64,000 nucleotides of DNA from Acidobacteriota bacterium (GTDB lineage Bacteria; Acidobacteriota; Thermoanaerobaculia; Gp7-AA8), in NCBI GenBank assembly GCA_021781455.1, contig JAJXWV010000078.1, positions 3,991 to 67,990 of the forward strand, written 5' to 3'. Below, in pieces: positions 25,530 through 32,297 of the stretch. Below the pieces are notes generated by a model that saw only the letters and a program-made list of their open reading frames with translations, made no database searches and was not told the origin of the DNA. Position numbers and translations under genes: made by a program. Position 1 is the first letter of the stretch. Each line of letters opens with the position of its first letter.

Positions 25530-25610
25530 TGGCGCTCGTGATCCCGGTCACGGAATGCGGCGGATTCGCGCCCTAGGTTGCTGCGCAAAGCACAATCCGG
25601 CCAGGAGGCA

Positions 25611-25645
25611 CAAAAAAGGGGGCGTACCGCCCCCTTTTCTTTTAT
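25611..25645. terminator. Bidirectional intrinsic terminator (A5-GGGGGCG-TAC-CGCCCCC-T4CT4)
   Basis: aaaaagggggcgtaccgcccccttttctttt read directly. Confidence 0.7.
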
Positions 25646-25712
25646 CCCCGTGACGACGCGCGTGTGCGTGTCGCGTTCCGACGACCCAGTCAACCAAGGA
25701 GGTCTTTTGCCC

Positions 25713-26969
25713 ATGCGTAGAGGATTCACGATTCCGTCAACGGGAGGAAACCATCTCAGTAACAAGCGCCCCGCGGCAGGCCGCTGTTCGGGCCAGGACG
25801 GCTTCACGCTGGTCGAGCTGCTGGTGGTCATCGCCGTCATCGCCATCCTGATCGGGCTGCTGCTGCCGGCGGTGCAGAAGGTACGCGAGGCGGCCAACCG
25901 CGCCGGCTGCTCGAACAACCTGCGCACCATCGCGAACGCCGAGATGAAGTACTTCGCGACGCATCGCACGTATGCCAGCTCGTTCGACAGCCTCGGGCTC
26001 TCCGACCAGTTTCCGAACAATCAGAACGGCGGCTACGAGTTCGCGATCAACGGCAACGAGACGCGGTTCCTCGCCACCGGCACGCCGGCGGCTCCGGGTG
26101 TGACCGCCTCCGTCGATTGTCAGATCGATCAGGGCAATCGGGTGGTTTGCGGGCCGAATCCGAAATCCGACATGGGCCGCCGCCGGATGTTCGCGGCCGT
26201 CAACAGCGAGGCCGCTCACAGCATTGCCATGCTGCTGGCGCAGATGCCCGATGCTCTGAAGCAGGTCGTTCCCGCGCTGCAGGGCAATCACGCCGTCAGC
26301 GACGTCTTTCACCGGCTGGACCTCAACGGCGACGGCTTTGTCAGTCCCGCCGAGATCGTCAGCGCCCAGGGAGCGGACACCACCGGCGCACTCGGAGAGC
26401 TGCTGCCGGCCGTTCAGCGCGACCTGCAACTCGGCCTCGCCGGCGAAAACCTCTCGAAGCTGCCGGGCGTGAGTCTGGCCATGCTCACCTCGGCCGCGCC
26501 TAACAGCAATTCCTCGGTCAACCTCAACGGCGACCTCGGAATCGTCAGGAGCACGACTCCTCTCACCAACGGGAACGTGGTCTCTGCCATCGAGCTGGCC
26601 GGTTTCTGTGACGGCAGTGTGCGGCCCGTTGAGGGCGGCAGCAATCAGCTCAACGGCCGCAGCACTGGTTTCTTCTCTCCGCTCGCATCGGCCGATCCGA
26701 AGAATCAGTCGTGGTCGGGACCGATCACCTTTACGGCCCCGAACGGCAACATACTCGACGGCGTCCTCATCGGCCTGCTCCTGCCTGCGGTGAGGATCGG
26801 TGGTGCCGGCGGGCTGAGCGGGCTCGTGATCATCACCGACGGTACCTCGAACACTCTGCAGGGAGCGTTCGGCCCGGCAATGATCGGAGGCCTCACATCG
26901 ACGGACCCGAACTTCCAGAGCTCCTCGTTCCGCCTGAAATCGTTCGCAGTTTCGTCCGGCGGCGATTGA
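25713..26969 (+). CDS. Prepilin-type N-terminal cleavage/methylation-domain protein (DUF1559-like pseudopilin-like family)
   Basis: [34 protein letters not shown] is a class III signal/pilin N-terminal helix. The C-terminal region contains [19 protein letters not shown]. The upstream ORF-track extension is rejected. Confidence 0.75.
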
Positions 26970-27036: not shown

Positions 27037-27075
27037 CCCTTCTCCCCCGCGCGCAACGGGGGAGAAGGTGCCGGC
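27037..27075. repeat. Palindromic REP-like element CCCTTCTCCCCCGCGCGCAACGGGGGAGAAGG (same core as 2355-2566)
   Basis: Read directly. Lies between convergent genes. Confidence 0.65.
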
Positions 27076-27081
27076 AGGATT

Positions 27082-28062
27082 TCAGACGAACATCGCGTCG
27101 GCGAGCCGCTGCAGCATCGGCAGGCCTCGAATCTCGGTCTCGTACAGCGGCACGATGGCGCGGACGCTTCCGTCGAACTTCTGCCACACGGTGCGCATGT
27201 GCTCTTCCTGCATGGTCACGCGATTCTTGACGAAGTCCGCGGATTGCGCGTCGAGTGAGCTCTTGTCGATGAGCATGTTGACCAGGACGCCTCCCACCGG
27301 AATCCCGAAATCGTGGAACCACTGGATGAAGCGCGTGATGACGGCGATCGGAAGCGCTTCCGGCAGCGCGACGAAGAAGAACGAGGTCTTCTCGGGATCC
27401 GTGAGCAGCACGCGACCGTGCTCCATGCGGTCGCGGAAGGAGACCAGGTAGTCCATGAGGGGATCCTGCTGCTTCTTCTTGGTGAAGGAGAGCAATTCGC
27501 GCAGGGTTCTCGCCTCCTCGCGGCTCTTGAGCATCTTGTTGACCCAGAGCGAGTAGACCTTCGACATCCCGAGAAGACGGCGTGCGTTCGCCGTGGGAGC
27601 AGTGTCGAAGACATAGACGTCGTACTCGTTCTTGAACATGAGATCGATCATGTTCTCGAACATCGCCGACTCCTCGAAGGCCGGGTTCATTGTGGCCGAG
27701 GCGACGAAGTCTTCGGCCTTGGTGGAGATGTCCGCGAATTTGAGGAACCACTGGATCTTTTCGCGAATCTCGGTCTTCGAGCGCTCGATCGTGTCCTTGG
27801 TCTCGATCTCGTAGGCCCAGAGGTTGGGCACTCCGTCCACAGCTGTGTGTTTGCCGAGGACGTTCTGACCGAGAAGACTGGTGAGGCTGTGGACCGGGTT
27901 GGTCGAGGCGAGCATCGTCCGGCGTCCCTGCCTGGCCAGCCAGACCGCGGTGGCCGCGGCGAAGACCGTCTTTCCGACGCCGCCCTTGCCCCCGAAGAAG
28001 ACGAACTTGAGATTGCCGTGCGCCTTCAGGTAATCGCGCATGGATGTCTGAATGTCGGGCAT
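27082..28062 (-). CDS. ArsA/Get3-family ATPase (deviant Walker A; signature degenerated to DTAPTA)
   Basis: FFGGKGGVGKT P-loop. STNPVHSL matches the STDPAHS(L) region. DTAPTANARRLL sits in place of DTAPTGH. 326 aa, single-domain (Get3-like size). GGGGGAGGG RBS. Confidence 0.8.
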   Translation of the reverse strand: MPDIQTSMRDYLKAHGNLKFVFFGGKGGVGKTVFAAATAVWLARQGRRTMLASTNPVHSLTSLLGQNVLGKHTAVDGVPNLWAYEIETKDTIERSKTEIREKIQWFLKFADISTKAEDFVASATMNPAFEESAMFENMIDLMFKNEYDVYVFDTAPTANARRLLGMSKVYSLWVNKMLKSREEARTLRELLSFTKKKQQDPLMDYLVSFRDRMEHGRVLLTDPEKTSFFFVALPEALPIAVITRFIQWFHDFGIPVGGVLVNMLIDKSSLDAQSADFVKNRVTMQEEHMRTVWQKFDGSVRAIVPLYETEIRGLPMLQRLADAMFV

Positions 28063-28079
28063 GGTCTTACCCTCCCCCG

Positions 28080-29072
28080 TTAGCGGGCCGTGACGAGCGC
28101 CTCGCCATACATGATTCCGGCGAGTTTCTCGATCATCGGCAGGCCGGTGACGTCGCGCTCCAGTTCCGGAACGTAGGCCAGAACGTCGTTGCCGAACGTC
28201 GCGCGGATGGTGTCGAGGTACTTGTCCTGCATCAGGATGCGATTGCGCAGATAGTCGGGGATGGACTGTTTGAGCAACTCGTGGGGAATGACGCGATTCA
28301 CCACATAGCCCCCAATGGGGACGTCGAACTGCGCGAACAGCTTTGCCGCCTTCTGAGTGTCGATGATGATCATGTCCTCGGGCACGACCACGAAGAAGAA
28401 AGCCGTCTTCGCCTTGTCCGTAAGAATGGAGGACGAGGCATTGATCCGTCCCTTGATGTAAACGAGCTCATTGAGGATCTCGTCCTGTTCCGTCTGTTTT
28501 TCTCTCTTGAGACGGCTGACCATCTCTTCGTACTCGCGCATGTCCTCGCGCAGCTTGGTCACCTTGTTGATCCACTCGTCGTAAACCTTGGCCATGCTCA
28601 GGTAATACAGAGCGTGGCCGAGAGGAACGAGGTCGTAGATGTAGTAGTCATAGCTGCCCTCGACCACGACGTCCACCACGGCGTCGAAAATCGCGCTCTC
28701 CTCCATGGCCGGTTCTGCACTGGCCGCCTGGATGTAATGCTCGATCTCCTCCGGCACTGACGGGAGGCCGTAGCGGTCGCGGATCTTCGCCCGAATCTCC
28801 TCCTGGTACGCCTTGATGTGCGAGTCGGCGTCGATCTCCTGGGCCCAGAGGTTCTCCATGATTTTCACGGGGCCTTTTCCGAAGATGTCGCGCTGGAAGA
28901 TATCGGTGAGCGACGCCTGCGGGTCGACCGAGAAGACCAGGACCTTCTTGCCCTGCGCGGCGAGCCAGTAGGCCGTGGCGGCCGAGAAAGTGGTCTTGCC
29001 GAGACCTCCCTTGCCGCCGAACATGATGTAGCGACGATCGGGGTTCTGTTGAAAAACCTCTTTCATCCCCAT
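28080..29072 (-). CDS. ArsA/Get3-family ATPase, second paralog (signature DLVPLGH)
   Basis: MFGGKGGLGKT P-loop. VDPQASLTD. DLVPLGHALYYL. 330 aa. Its stop is 18 bp from the downstream paralog. Confidence 0.8.
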   Translation of the reverse strand: MGMKEVFQQNPDRRYIMFGGKGGLGKTTFSAATAYWLAAQGKKVLVFSVDPQASLTDIFQRDIFGKGPVKIMENLWAQEIDADSHIKAYQEEIRAKIRDRYGLPSVPEEIEHYIQAASAEPAMEESAIFDAVVDVVVEGSYDYYIYDLVPLGHALYYLSMAKVYDEWINKVTKLREDMREYEEMVSRLKREKQTEQDEILNELVYIKGRINASSSILTDKAKTAFFFVVVPEDMIIIDTQKAAKLFAQFDVPIGGYVVNRVIPHELLKQSIPDYLRNRILMQDKYLDTIRATFGNDVLAYVPELERDVTGLPMIEKLAGIMYGEALVTAR

Positions 29073-29117
29073 TGAGTCCTCACTCTCTATGTCCTAATGC
29101 CTTCGTTTTCTCGCGCG

Positions 29118-29402
29118 TTAGAACATGGCATCGGATACGTCCTTCTCGCGGAGCATCCGGCGCTTCCATGTCGCAATCTGCGGGACGACATAGGGCAGCA
29201 ACCTGAGGCTGTAATAAGGAGGGAGAATGGGGATTCCGAGCATGTCGCCCATGGTGATGAGGATGAACAGGTGCTCCATGGAGGCGCGTGTCCGTAGGGC
29301 GGCTCGGCTCATGTCGTGTGCCGACATGCCGTAAATGGTTTCCTTGAAGCCGCTCCATAATCCCTTGAAGCCGCCGGGCCTTTCCAATTTCTTGTCTGTC
29401 AC
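29118..29402 (-). CDS. Small hydrophobic protein, paralog A (partner of the Get3-like ATPases)
   Basis: 94 aa, GTG start after AAGGAG. Core RASMEHLFILITMGDMLGIPILPPYYSLRLLPYV…WKRRMLRE. Clearly paralogous to the next gene. No recognised family. Confidence 0.6.
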   Translation of the reverse strand: MTDKKLERPGGFKGLWSGFKETIYGMSAHDMSRAALRTRASMEHLFILITMGDMLGIPILPPYYSLRLLPYVVPQIATWKRRMLREKDVSDAMF

Positions 29403-29419
29403 TGCTGTCTCCTTTGGCC

Positions 29420-29676
29420 TTACACACCGTGAAGGTGATGTTCGTGTTCGTCTCCCAATTGGTGTTCGCGAAGCATCCGCCGTTTCCAGCCCTTGACTGA
29501 GCCGGCGACATACGGAAGCAGACGAAGGGCATAATAGGGTGGCATGACGGGCACGCCGATCATGTCGCCGAAGGTGACGAGGATGAAGAGCCGCTCCATT
29601 GAGGCGCGTATCTCCAGGGCCTGCTGCGCGGTCTCGTATCCGAACATGCCATACAGGAATTCGCGGAACGCCTTCA
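29420..29676 (-). CDS. Small hydrophobic protein, paralog B
   Basis: 85 aa from MKAFREFLYGMFGYE…RASMERLFILVTFGDMIGVPVMPPYYALRLLPYV…WKRRMLRE, with a His-rich tail. The ORF-track N-terminal ~200 aa is rejected because the opposite strand is coding there. Confidence 0.55.
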
Positions 29677-29725
29677 TCCAGCTCCCGTGCTTCACCGCCG
29701 GACCGCTGCCTCCCGGAGGACGACG

Positions 29726-30364
29726 GTGAATGCGGCCGTGATCATCGTCGTGGCTGTTGTCATGGGCTGGTTCGCCGTCGGCAGCATCTGGAACGTCCGC
29801 AGGGGAAACGCCGTCCTGCGCTGGCTGCAGGATGGGCTCCCGCTTGTCGGCGAGCGCACCACAGTGCGCTGGCTCGGCACTACGTCCGTGGAGATGGTGA
29901 TCGGCCAGGCCAGGAAACCGTTCGATCAGGTGACGCTGGTGGTATTCCTCGAGCCGAGAGACGTGCCGTGGATCTGGGGCCCATCTCGCCTGCGGGGCCG
30001 GCGCGACACCCTGATCTTCCGGGCTCGCCTCGGAACGACGCCGGTCGTCGATCTCGAGGCATTCGACCCCGCCAGCTGGTCGGGGCGCGAGGCCCGCTCC
30101 CGGACCACCGCCGAACGATGGACCCTGCGCGAGCCGAAGCGCGCCGGCGACCTGCCCCTCTACTACAAGCTCGAAGGAGGGATGGCCATCGCCGACGCCC
30201 TCCTCGGGCTCGCACGCGAAGGCGGAATGACGGTGCGCCGCCTCTCCGTCCGTCGCGCCGAGCCCCACCTGCAGCTTCATGTCGATCTTCCCCCCGCCTC
30301 CGCCCCTGCGGCGGAGTTCTTCGGTACTCTGCGTGCCCTCGGCGAGACCGCGGCACGCTGTTAG
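29726..30364 (+). CDS. Membrane-anchored hypothetical protein (N-terminal TM helix + ~190-aa soluble domain), divergent from the small-protein/ATPase operon
   Basis: GTG start after GGAGGA. Strong GC3 bias. AAVIIVVAVVMGWFAVGSIW helix. No known domain. Confidence 0.5.
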   Translation: MNAAVIIVVAVVMGWFAVGSIWNVRRGNAVLRWLQDGLPLVGERTTVRWLGTTSVEMVIGQARKPFDQVTLVVFLEPRDVPWIWGPSRLRGRRDTLIFRARLGTTPVVDLEAFDPASWSGREARSRTTAERWTLREPKRAGDLPLYYKLEGGMAIADALLGLAREGGMTVRRLSVRRAEPHLQLHVDLPPASAPAAEFFGTLRALGETAARC

Positions 30365-30377
30365 GCGCCCCTTCTCC

Positions 30378-32297
30378 TCATGCGTGCACCGGGGCCGCTG
30401 GCGCCGGGACTGCCGGCGTCGCGGAGTAGCGCCGATAGGCCTTCAATCCATCCCACCCGATCACGATTGCCGCGACCAGCAGCAGCGCCGCGACCACGAT
30501 CATGGCCCAGGCACCGGCCACCGGAAGCCCGCTCATCTTCGGATTCGCGGCGATGGTCACATAGAGATTTCGAGCCGTGACGATCGTGGCGAACAACGTG
30601 GTGAAGTACATGAACAGCATCGGATAGAGGGCGTAACTCGGATTCCGCTTCTCCGACTTCAGCCAGACCGAGACCACCAGCAGGCTCAGCGCCGCCATGA
30701 GCTGATTCGAGGCGCCGAACATCTGCCACAGGTACACCCACGTCCCGGTGAGCACCAGGGCCATGGTGAGCAGCATCGAGATGATGCTCGAGACGTGCAT
30801 GTTGCGGACGAGAGGAATCGTCTCGCCGACCCATTCGGTCAGCGTCACGCGCATGACGCGGAAGACCAGCTGCGTCACGGTGAGCACGATCATGACGAAG
30901 GCACCGAACCCCAGGGCCGTGCCGAAGACCTCGGGGATGACCGTGAACGTGCCGGCGTAGATCAGTTTGCCGACGCCTGCTGCGAAACGGCCGCCACCAC
31001 CGCCCGCACCCGCGATGGAGACTGCCATCAGCGAGAGAAGGGCCAGCGTGTACTCGCCGAACATCGAGCCGGCGCCGACCGGAAGGCCATCGGTCTCGTA
31101 CTCGAGCTGCCGGGCGGTGCCGACCGATCCGACCAGAGCATGCCAGCCGGAGATCGCGCCACAGGCGATCGTCACGAACAGCATCGGCCACAGCGGCTGC
31201 CACGCCGCTCCGGCCTGCGGCCAGGCGAACCCGAGGTTCTTCACAGCGGCCAGAGCAAAGGCGCCGATCGTGTTCCCGGCCGAGTCCACCACCCCGGTCA
31301 GCGGTGCGACGAGAGCACCGATGGCGCTCAGAACGATCGTAATGAGCATCACCCAGAATCCGATGTAGTTGACCGGCTGCGCGAAACGCCAGATGGGCAT
31401 GTTCGCGCCCATGTACGAGAAGACGAACAGGAACAGCATCCACAGGAGATAGTTCGGAAGCGTCTTCACCAGTCCGGTCGCCGCGTCGTAGGCAGACGTG
31501 GTCGGCCGCTTGCCGTCCTTGCCCGGGACCGGGACGCGCGGATCGGAGTTCGTGGGATCAACGATGCTGATGAGAGGTTGTTTGTCCGAGATCTTGTCCA
31601 CCGTGGCATTCAAGCCGGCGATGGCGCGGCCGACCGGCCCCTGCACAAGGGCACCGTTGGCGTCCTTGTGCTGCCCCATCGGACCGACGGCCATGGCCGC
31701 GAGCGTCACCGCCACGACGATCCCGGTGACGACGATCAGGTCCATCTTCCACCGGTACATCATCTGGCCCGCGAGCAGGCCCATGAGAGCCAGCATGATG
31801 ATCCCCAGAGGAACGTCGGGACGGGCCGAAAGGATGGCCGCCAGGATTCCGACGAACGCTCCGGCCAGCAGCATCAGATAGAAAAAGATGAAGACGAAGA
31901 GAATCGTCCGGGTGCGCGGAGCGATGAGTTTGTGCGAGATCGCACTCAGGCTGTTTCCGTCGTTGCGGACGGCAACCATGATGGCCGAGTAATCGCTGAC
32001 CCAGCCGATGAAGCTGACCCCGATGACCAGCCACAGCAGCGAGGGAAACCATCCCCAGATGTTCGCCGCGGTGATGACCCCGACGATGGGCCCTGCCGCG
32101 GCAATCGACTTGAAGTGGTAGCCGTAGAGGACGTTCTTGCTCGTCGGCATGAAGTCGACACCGTCCATGTACATGGTGGCCGGCGTTGCGCGTTTGACGT
32201 CGGTCTGGATGACGCTTCGGTCGATTCGACGCGCGTAGTAGTTGTAGGCCACATAGATGACGATCACCGCGATGACCACGATCCACAACGTGTTCAT
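30378..32297 (-). CDS. cstA: Carbon starvation protein A (peptide/pyruvate transporter family)
   Basis: 639 aa polytopic protein with the CstA N-terminal signature (…YGYHFKSIAAAGPIVGVITAANIWGW…). AGGAGG RBS. Confidence 0.9.
   Translation of the reverse strand: MNTLWIVVIAVIVIYVAYNYYARRIDRSVIQTDVKRATPATMYMDGVDFMPTSKNVLYGYHFKSIAAAGPIVGVITAANIWGWFPSLLWLVIGVSFIGWVSDYSAIMVAVRNDGNSLSAISHKLIAPRTRTILFVFIFFYLMLLAGAFVGILAAILSARPDVPLGIIMLALMGLLAGQMMYRWKMDLIVVTGIVVAVTLAAMAVGPMGQHKDANGALVQGPVGRAIAGLNATVDKISDKQPLISIVDPTNSDPRVPVPGKDGKRPTTSAYDAATGLVKTLPNYLLWMLFLFVFSYMGANMPIWRFAQPVNYIGFWVMLITIVLSAIGALVAPLTGVVDSAGNTIGAFALAAVKNLGFAWPQAGAAWQPLWPMLFVTIACGAISGWHALVGSVGTARQLEYETDGLPVGAGSMFGEYTLALLSLMAVSIAGAGGGGGRFAAGVGKLIYAGTFTVIPEVFGTALGFGAFVMIVLTVTQLVFRVMRVTLTEWVGETIPLVRNMHVSSIISMLLTMALVLTGTWVYLWQMFGASNQLMAALSLLVVSVWLKSEKRNPSYALYPMLFMYFTTLFATIVTARNLYVTIAANPKMSGLPVAGAWAMIVVAALLLVAAIVIGWDGLKAYRRYSATPAVPAPAAPVHA

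Follow-up and report, generated by a model that had tools for sequence, protein, structure and literature searches.

In a 64,000-nucleotide stretch of DNA from an Acidobacteriota bacterium (GenBank assembly GCA_021781455.1, contig JAJXWV010000078.1, positions 3,991 to 67,990 of the forward strand; hereafter the window), four co-directional genes encode two small hydrophobic DUF7990 proteins followed by two ATPases of the ArsA/Get3 fold. They make up two-thirds of a six-gene module centred on a membrane transporter of the CstA family, the remaining members being the permease gene itself and a gene for a CstY-like single-pass membrane protein. By analogy with known ATPase–carrier pairs, we consider the chances about even that the six-gene unit encodes one membrane complex in which CstA transport is ATP-driven or ATP-gated. 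Such a coupled complex is supported by the linkage of the genes across phyla and by an independent report from 2010, which describes the association and co-evolution of CstA, CstX and ArsA homologues (PMC2963123).

The six-gene module

A previous reading of this DNA from its letters alone (the sequence-only reading) had described the four genes as an operon, and all four open reading frames (ORFs) indeed lie on the minus strand at the positions listed below. The divergent membrane-anchored gene that it placed upstream is also real, with 1357 homologues and a confident AlphaFold model of the product, and belongs to the system. What that reading overlooked is the neighbouring CstA permease, the strongest of the conserved partners. 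The six genes are as follows:

30378-32297, minus strand: CstA-family permease gene, 639 amino acids (aa), PF02554
29726-30364, plus strand: CstY-like single-pass membrane protein gene, approximately 212 aa, between cstA and the small genes
29420-29677, minus strand: small protein 1 gene, 85 aa, DUF7990 / 'CstX'-like, the less conserved paralogue
29118-29402, minus strand: small protein 2 gene, 94 aa, GTG start, DUF7990 / 'CstX'-like, extremely conserved
28080-29072, minus strand: upstream ArsA/Get3-fold ATPase gene, 330 aa, likely the catalytic subunit
27082-28062, minus strand: downstream ArsA/Get3-fold ATPase gene, 326 aa, likely the non-hydrolysing subunit

Two starts differ from those of the mechanical ORFs. 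The ORF of the 85-aa gene extends to 30280, and the ATG at 29677, which agrees with the homologues, was chosen; the ORF of the CstY-like gene (225 aa) begins at 29687, and the approximately 212-aa version from 29726 was used. The spacers between the four minus-strand genes are 17, 45 and 17 bp, and each gene is preceded by a Shine-Dalgarno-like purine run.

An alignment of the small protein was used to search 185,579 species-representative genomes, which gave at least 587 matching stretches, of which the 80 best were kept; with three loci obtained earlier (L001-L003) these make up a set of 83 loci onto which the window proteins were mapped. The sequence-only reading had suggested looking for the arrangement of small genes and ATPases in other genomes, and the two kinds of gene occur together in every one of the 80 genome loci that this search yielded, contig ends permitting. 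All six genes are near full length in 60 of the 83 loci, the others being mostly interrupted by contig ends or frameshifts, and a near-full-length CstA is found in 67 of the 83, beside the other module genes wherever it occurs. The loci span at least seven phyla and include Acidobacteriota (Thermoanaerobaculia), Chloroflexota, Alpha-, Beta- and Gammaproteobacteria, Myxococcota, Actinomycetota and Binatia. The most divergent DUF7990 proteins, which share only 33-49% identity with the 94-aa protein, belong to L085, L087, L088 and L089, and these modules too contain the same genes. The four-gene arrangement, present in 80 of 80 retrieved loci, is far beyond chance. Because identity across phyla is high and the small and ATPase genes (27082-29677) have a G+C content of 57-60%, against 65.7% for the whole window, the data suggest that the module was horizontally acquired and has spread among bacteria.

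Clustering of ORFs across the related loci gave no further conserved neighbour families except a lineage-restricted protein of approximately 125 aa with a CxxC motif (HCxHC). This protein accompanies the module in 14 of the 83 loci, in Chloroflexota, Actinomycetota and some Myxococcota (examples are L027 7227-7607, L084 70-444 and L085 7631-8014), mostly directly upstream of cstA or overlapping a DUF7990 gene; it is absent from the window and is apparently fused N-terminally to DUF7990 in the proteins P0128, P0180 and P0216. Modules of the Anaerolineales type carry a third DUF7990 gene right after the downstream ATPase (L056 12371-12595, L061 7328-7555, L066, L075, L081-L083 and L088 10715-10975). 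Extra DNA of 0.9-2.4 kb, possibly insertion elements, splits the module in three loci (L037 5442-7890, L072 10270-11172 and L081 7345-9083); it separates the small genes from the ATPases or the two ATPases from each other.

The ATPase pair

The two ATPases share 36% identity across 322 residues (E 1e-71), which bears out their proposed paralogy. Both match PF02374 (ArsA_ATPase) with E values of 1e-66 and 2e-71 (225 and 241 bits, cut-off 24), and both exceed the cut-off of 135 bits for TIGR00345 (216 and 227 bits). The motifs DLVPLGH, DTAPTA and GGKGGxGKT quoted in the sequence-only reading are all present. The KGGxGKT loop does not indicate degeneration, being the normal 'deviant Walker A' of the ArsA/Get3 ATPase class, and with its signature lysine it is present in both ATPases and conserved in their orthologues. 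The two signatures had been called complementary in their degeneration, whereas the losses in fact fall almost entirely on one side. The downstream ATPase (P-loop GGKGGVGKTV) has lost both the switch I Asp, which is Asn in STNPVHS, and the GH of switch II (DTAPTAN), while the upstream ATPase (P-loop GGKGGLGKTT) keeps both the Asp (SVDPQAS) and the GH (DLVPLGH), with DTAP to DLVP as its only change.

In a motif census of approximately 76 orthologues per paralogue, this split between Asp with GH and Asn without GH is consistent, and the upstream subunit retains a complete catalytic set in every locus examined. The same asymmetry is found in distant modules that are only 29-55% identical, and the two paralogues are always adjacent across the related loci, so the earlier suggestion of a heterodimer holds. 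Such motifs are what an obligate heterodimer with one hydrolytic site would be expected to show, the degenerate subunit contributing in trans, the upstream protein being the likely catalytic subunit and the downstream protein the likely non-hydrolysing one. The downstream paralogue of L087 (9319-10299) has the P-loop GGKSSVGNTG, in which the canonical Walker A lysine is lost and the signature lysine is kept.

Neither window ATPase contains a single Cys, and 75 of the 76 upstream orthologues are also Cys-free, so that neither an ArsA-type metalloid site nor the CxxC zinc bridge of Get3 is possible; the positions aligned to CDFC of archaeal Get3 read IPDY and SADF. In a crude sequence comparison, the groove helices contain 4 and 8 Met in the window ATPases versus 13 and 14 in two archaeal Get3 proteins, with a similar hydrophobic fraction.

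The small DUF7990 proteins

The two small proteins are likewise paralogues, with 56% identity over 75 residues (E 7e-34). The sequence-only reading could name no family for them, but precomputed annotations of their homologues and orthologues assign them to PF25952 (DUF7990): the 94-aa protein has 5266 homologues, and all 120 of those listed carry a PF25952 match, one of them being 95% identical, as do the orthologues of both small genes in L001 and L002. A local Pfam scan of the two proteins themselves gave no match, the set of models used apparently not containing this one. Clustered at 50% identity, DUF7990 falls into 436 groups. Within the module, conservation is highest for the 94-aa protein, with 76-95% identity across phyla (median 83%), versus a median of 63% across loci for the 85-aa protein. 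Their C-termini differ (HEHHLHGV in the 85-aa protein, ...DAMF in the 94-aa protein), and neither contains Cys.

Among 42 diverse members, G25, G52, D53, G56, P58, Y64, L66, L68, L69, P70, W79 and E86 are invariant or nearly so. In the AlphaFold2 model of the 94-aa protein, which is of moderate confidence (predicted local distance difference test score, pLDDT, 71), a helix at residues 11-54 is followed by a loop at 55-61 and a second helix at 62-84. The GD..G.P...Y.L.LLP block sits at the tip of this hairpin and the W-K-R-R..L-R-E block in a helix; such clustering of invariant residues at a modelled tip fits an interface with several partners. Searches of the Protein Data Bank (PDB) by sequence and profile gave no matches for the small proteins, and a fold search with the 94-aa hairpin model returned generic hairpins only.

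In the sequence-only reading, the small proteins resembled tail-anchored or hairpin membrane clients or receptors of a Get3-like chaperone. The tail-anchored part of this idea is weakened by the character of the hydrophobic stretch, which contains an invariant Asp and several Pro. The best 19-residue window has a Kyte-Doolittle mean of 1.5 and a position-independent Hessa insertion sum of +7 to +9 kcal/mol, versus 2.5 and -1.0 kcal/mol for the N-terminal helix of the 212-aa CstY-like protein. The stretch is thus probably too weak for an ordinary transmembrane (TM) or tail-anchor helix, and because it is unlike such helices the small proteins are read as interface or re-entrant hairpins rather than as tail-anchored clients.

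The only curated small-protein model matched by the two is NCBIfam NF041419 (cory-CC-star), which aligns over the conserved hairpin region (E 1e-9 and 3e-8) with scores of 37.8 and 33.7 bits, under its cut-off of 80. The window proteins have no terminal Cys-Cys, a criterion deduced from the name of that family alone, and NF041419 probably represents an actinobacterial offshoot that has diverged within the same superfamily. Nothing relevant on cory-CC-star, PF25952 or DUF7990 came up in literature searches. Two possible fusions were noticed. P0001 (163 aa, from a single 800-nt contig) may join a 94-aa type and an 85-aa type protein in tandem, and P0172 (a 213-aa fragment, not traced to a contig) may join the last TM helices of CstA to DUF7990. 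Both are unverified and may be assembly or frameshift artefacts; if real, they would support a physical association.

The CstA permease and the CstY-like protein

The permease matches PF02554 at E 2.4e-97 and scores 139 bits against the NCBIfam CstA equivalog, for which the cut-off is 1188, so by sequence it is only distantly related to CstA, the pyruvate/H+ symporter of E. coli. A PDB sequence search found no solved structure for a CstA-family permease.

The CstY-like gene is embedded antisense between cstA and the small genes, which are themselves co-directional, and this orientation is kept across phyla; in the window, 48 bp separate its start from that of the first small gene (29677-29726). 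In the Chloroflexota loci L027, L028 and L042, the CstY-like gene is co-directional and lies 1.5-2.3 kb downstream of the ATPases. No Pfam match was found for the 225-aa ORF version, nor among 30 members of the family even at E 10. The N-terminal TM helix contains invariant W28, F29, G32 and N36, and since basic residues come after the helix, the rest of the protein should be cytoplasmic. Its AlphaFold model, built from a 30-sequence alignment, has a pLDDT of 91.9 and consists of the TM helix and an alpha/beta domain. Two independent structure searches agree on a CCDC47-like fold, with mycobacterial TtfA ranking after CCDC47. However, a PDB profile search with the 212-aa family did not recover CCDC47, showing no sequence-level signal behind the fold match. 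In its modelled fold, this bacterial protein resembles CCDC47, a subunit of a eukaryotic chaperone for membrane proteins, and the simplest functional analogy would be with TtfA, a single-pass accessory subunit of a multipass transporter.

Relation to known systems

The sequence-only reading considered the system not to have been described as such. However, the gene association was published by Castillo and Saier in 2010 (Int J Microbiol, PMC2963123). According to that paper, which examined 26 genomes, single-domain ArsA homologues of approximately 330 aa co-occur and co-evolve with cstA and cstX, a 'single-TMS' gene of approximately 90 aa, and a single-TMS gene of approximately 210 aa, cstY, was found in five archaea only. 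Some genomes have two adjacent ArsA paralogues or two CstX paralogues, ars genes are never part of the cst clusters, and the ATPase is proposed there to energise CstA, CstX serving as coupler. The window likewise has a CstA permease beside single-domain ArsA homologues of approximately 330 aa, with no ars genes. The module association has thus already been described computationally, and the window holds a typical member of this known kind of cluster.

Searches for later papers on the cstA-cstX-cstY-arsA association, including CstA with Get3, found none. A search for archaeal CstX with a divergent, thermophile-like DUF7990 member returned no named archaeal proteins. As far as could be found, what is new here is the CstY-like gene in most bacterial modules, the CCDC47/TtfA fold, the conserved split between a catalytic and a non-catalytic ATPase, and the small proteins as unlikely ordinary TM or tail-anchored proteins. 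In the accessible text of the 2010 paper, CstY is archaeal only, whereas here its counterpart is bacterial and usually lies on the opposite strand, and the ATPase asymmetry, the sub-threshold hydrophobicity and the fold do not appear there.

The precedent for a soluble ATPase acting on a secondary carrier is ArsA-ArsB, as summarised in PMC2963123. The window ATPases share the family PF02374 with ArsA, and the two fused non-identical halves of ArsA are mirrored by the two paralogous genes. However, ArsA is a fused protein of approximately 590 aa rather than the product of two single-domain genes, the carrier in the window is CstA, unrelated to ArsB or Acr3, there are extra small subunits, and ArsD, ArsR and ArsC are absent. 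The DTAPTGH motif of ArsA is changed in both window copies, which also lack its metalloid-binding Cys, these being Cys113, Cys172 and Cys422 in E. coli ArsA.

Get3/TRC40 resembles the window ATPases in overall sequence and single-domain size, carries the same deviant Walker A and signature lysine, and has a helical subdomain of about equal length. In contrast to the Get3 homodimer, the window ATPases are a heteromeric paralogue pair, have no CxxC, include one subunit without the catalytic Asp, and are encoded by genes linked to a permease; no receptor of the Get1/Get2 type was recognised in the module. Mycobacterial BagA/BagB, the analogy drawn by the sequence-only reading, are likewise two adjacent non-identical Get3-like ATPase genes whose products are thought to form a heterodimer with no arsenic role. 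The analogy stands at the superfamily level but fails at the equivalog level, where the window ATPases score 36-56 bits (47-56 bits in the assessment of that analogy) against cut-offs of 400 and 521 for NF053622 and NF053621. We know of no description of BagAB with CstA or DUF7990 partners.

In PAT, an intramembrane chaperone of multipass proteins, CCDC47 is paired with Asterix. The 212-aa protein has no counterpart of the lumenal acidic domain of CCDC47, nor of its C-terminal coiled-coil and latch; it is not known to associate with ribosomes, and no Asterix-like gene was recognised in the module. According to a published statement, prokaryotes do not have PAT components (PMC9630114). TtfA consists of an N-terminal TM helix and an essential region of approximately 200 aa, and it binds the transporter MmpL3 and is needed for its function (PMC6593404). 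The 212-aa protein resembles TtfA in architecture and modelled fold, but has no detectable sequence similarity to it, and the partner transporter is CstA rather than MmpL3. No literature linking CCDC47 and TtfA was found.

Proposed mechanism and alternatives

Given the observed gene content, conserved linkage, family and fold assignments and motif asymmetry, we infer a physical complex, the identity of its catalytic subunit, the small proteins as couplers, and its substrate and direction of transport. The complex would consist of the CstA permease, the CstY-like protein, the two DUF7990 hairpins and the asymmetric Get3/ArsA-fold heterodimer. As in ArsA and Get3, the ATPase dimer would close and open with ATP binding and hydrolysis; only the upstream subunit would hydrolyse ATP, while the downstream subunit would bind or sense nucleotide and give its signature lysine in trans. 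The movement would be relayed to the permease by the two small hairpin proteins, whose invariant, hydrophobic, Asp-containing tips may dock at the permease/membrane interface or in the ATPase groove, and the CstY-like protein would anchor the assembly by its conserved TM helix. The outcome would be ATP-driven or ATP-gated transport of a CstA-type substrate, such as pyruvate, other small carboxylates or peptides, in parallel with the way in which ArsA turns the carrier ArsB into an ATP-driven pump.

Several observations weigh against this coupling. The characterised CstA and BtsT act alone as H+ symporters. The small genes and ATPases occur without an adjacent CstA in three loci (L062, L063 and L070), and an orphan DUF7990 gene in Armatimonadota (L086, 8001-8261) has no CstA or ArsA-like gene within 8 kb. 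The nearest solved structures of the ATPases are those of archaeal Get3, 3ug6 and 3zq6 (E 1e-53 to 1e-64; 9e-64 for the upstream ATPase with 3ug6), and archaeal Get3 proteins bind tail-anchored proteins in vitro. Furthermore, three CCDC47 chains were the only significant Foldseek matches of the 212-aa model (E 4.5e-6 to 2.4e-4, prob 1.0), and taken together, the archaeal Get3 and CCDC47 matches point to membrane-protein biogenesis over energy coupling. DUF7990 is likened to CstX, and the 212-aa family to CstY, by size, hydropathy or predicted TM segments, and position only, and no experiments on any module member were found in the searchable literature.

It is possible, though in our judgement rather unlikely, that the genes form a dedicated system for membrane-protein biogenesis or assembly, in which a hydrophobic element is bound by the Get3-like heterodimer and handed over to the membrane. 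This element would be either the DUF7990 hairpins, which was the idea of the sequence-only reading, or the late TM segments of the 18-TM CstA, and the CCDC47-like protein would be the membrane receptor or chaperone, making the whole a prokaryotic analogue of the GET and PAT factors. Besides the closeness of the ATPases to archaeal Get3 and the CCDC47 resemblance, a hydrophobic segment that ends 18 residues short of the C-terminus of DUF7990 would suit such a role. However, this part is sub-threshold for insertion, holds the invariant Asp and several Pro, and would require the conserved KRR to cross the membrane; the zinc motif of Get3 is missing, the groove helices appear to hold fewer Met than those of archaeal Get3 in the crude comparison above, the likeness to CCDC47 lies in the fold without a sequence signal, and nothing resembling Asterix or Get1/2 was identified as a partner. 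A one-to-one genetic link to one transporter is also seen more typically in subunits than in chaperones. The further claim that the module is the prokaryotic counterpart of the endoplasmic reticulum machinery for membrane-protein biogenesis, which would chaperone the insertion or assembly of a multipass transporter at the expense of ATP, appears improbable. The general idea of a Get3-like membrane-protein system gains a hint from the CCDC47-like fold, whereas its tail-anchored-client part is weakened.

A regulatory role is slightly likelier than biogenesis, though still unlikely: the ATPase pair, mostly slow-hydrolysing, would report the ATP/ADP state and open or plug CstA through the hairpins in carbon starvation, with transport itself remaining proton-driven. 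One subunit is always degenerate (Asp to Asn), and that of L087 has also lost the P-loop Lys; in yeast Get3, the equivalent substitution D57N traps the ATP-bound closed state, which is counted in favour of such a switch. The characterised CstA homologues are secondary symporters, as the NCBIfam name states, and the module is common in metagenome-assembled genomes from soil and groundwater, where starvation responses are plausibly important. However, the complete catalytic set of the upstream subunit in every locus argues against a mere switch, and sequence alone cannot separate this role from true energisation. As for an ArsA-type arsenic or antimony resistance pair, or a BagAB-type stress ATPase, that is merely adjacent to CstA, membership of PF02374 and TIGR00345 and the two adjacent half-size paralogues, which recall a split ArsA or BagA/BagB, are compatible with it, but it is extremely improbable. 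The ArsA equivalog TIGR04291 scores 103 and 116 bits against a cut-off of 650, the BagAB scores are similarly far below their cut-offs, the ATPases have no Cys, and the linkage to CstA holds across phyla. The sequence-only reading had found no arsenic partners nearby, and in agreement with this, the four flanking ORFs in the window show no ars family in a Pfam scan and the conserved neighbours of the related loci include none; the literature likewise states that ars genes never co-occur with these clusters (PMC2963123). By the low equivalog scores, the lack of Cys, the absence of an ars context and the cross-phylum CstA linkage, arsenic resistance is effectively excluded.

Significance

CstA-type permeases are treated as simple proton symporters, and the bacterial ATPases of the Get3/ArsA fold are mostly unassigned. 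The module occurs in several hundred of the 185,579 species-representative genomes, with proteins 76-95% identical across phyla, suggesting a carbon-scavenging transporter in an ATPase-coupled version, passed on horizontally between bacteria of soil and groundwater. Should the ATPase energise or gate CstA, then CstA would join ArsB as the second family of carriers that this ATPase fold turns into pumps. If a biogenesis role were instead true, the module would offer a compact bacterial genetic model for Get3-like and CCDC47-like factors, and a true counterpart of the eukaryotic machinery, with both kinds of factor in one bacterial operon, would contradict the statement that prokaryotes are without PAT (PMC9630114). 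In either case, the six genes are a well-defined unit with a clear prediction of which ATPase is catalytic and which is not, and with an unusually conserved 94-aa putative coupling protein.

Neighbouring features and minor observations

A palindrome follows the operon:

27038-27068, no strand assigned: GC-rich perfect palindrome, 13 bp after the last stop codon of the operon

The REP-like (repetitive extragenic palindromic) element that the sequence-only reading had placed downstream of the operon is thus a real hairpin, with a 13-bp stem, a folding energy of -31.6 kcal/mol and a z score of -3.1. Its 12-nt arm CCTTCTCCCCCG is repeated in the window, with six exact copies, and nine matches at no more than one mismatch versus 0.66 expected by chance; it forms two more inverted pairs at 2378-2440 and 2481-2543 with loops of approximately 40 nt. 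The label 'REP-like' is fair because the arm recurs at 2378-2543, and from its sequence the arm looks like part of a genome-specific repeat of the REP or MITE (miniature inverted-repeat transposable element) kind. A scan for T-tract terminators did not call the palindrome, which has no T-tract, and a classical terminator of this type was rejected; it may nevertheless act as a terminator or an RNA-stabilising hairpin.

The orphan DUF7990 gene of L086 is flanked by a gene with a CcmE domain and one for a CsoR-type metal-sensing repressor, with a P-type ATPase near. In the window, the gene converging on the operon from the other side (25578-26969, plus strand) encodes a type IV pilin-like or pseudopilin protein with an N-terminal methylation motif, a DUF1559-type region and an EF-hand match, and is apparently unrelated to the module.

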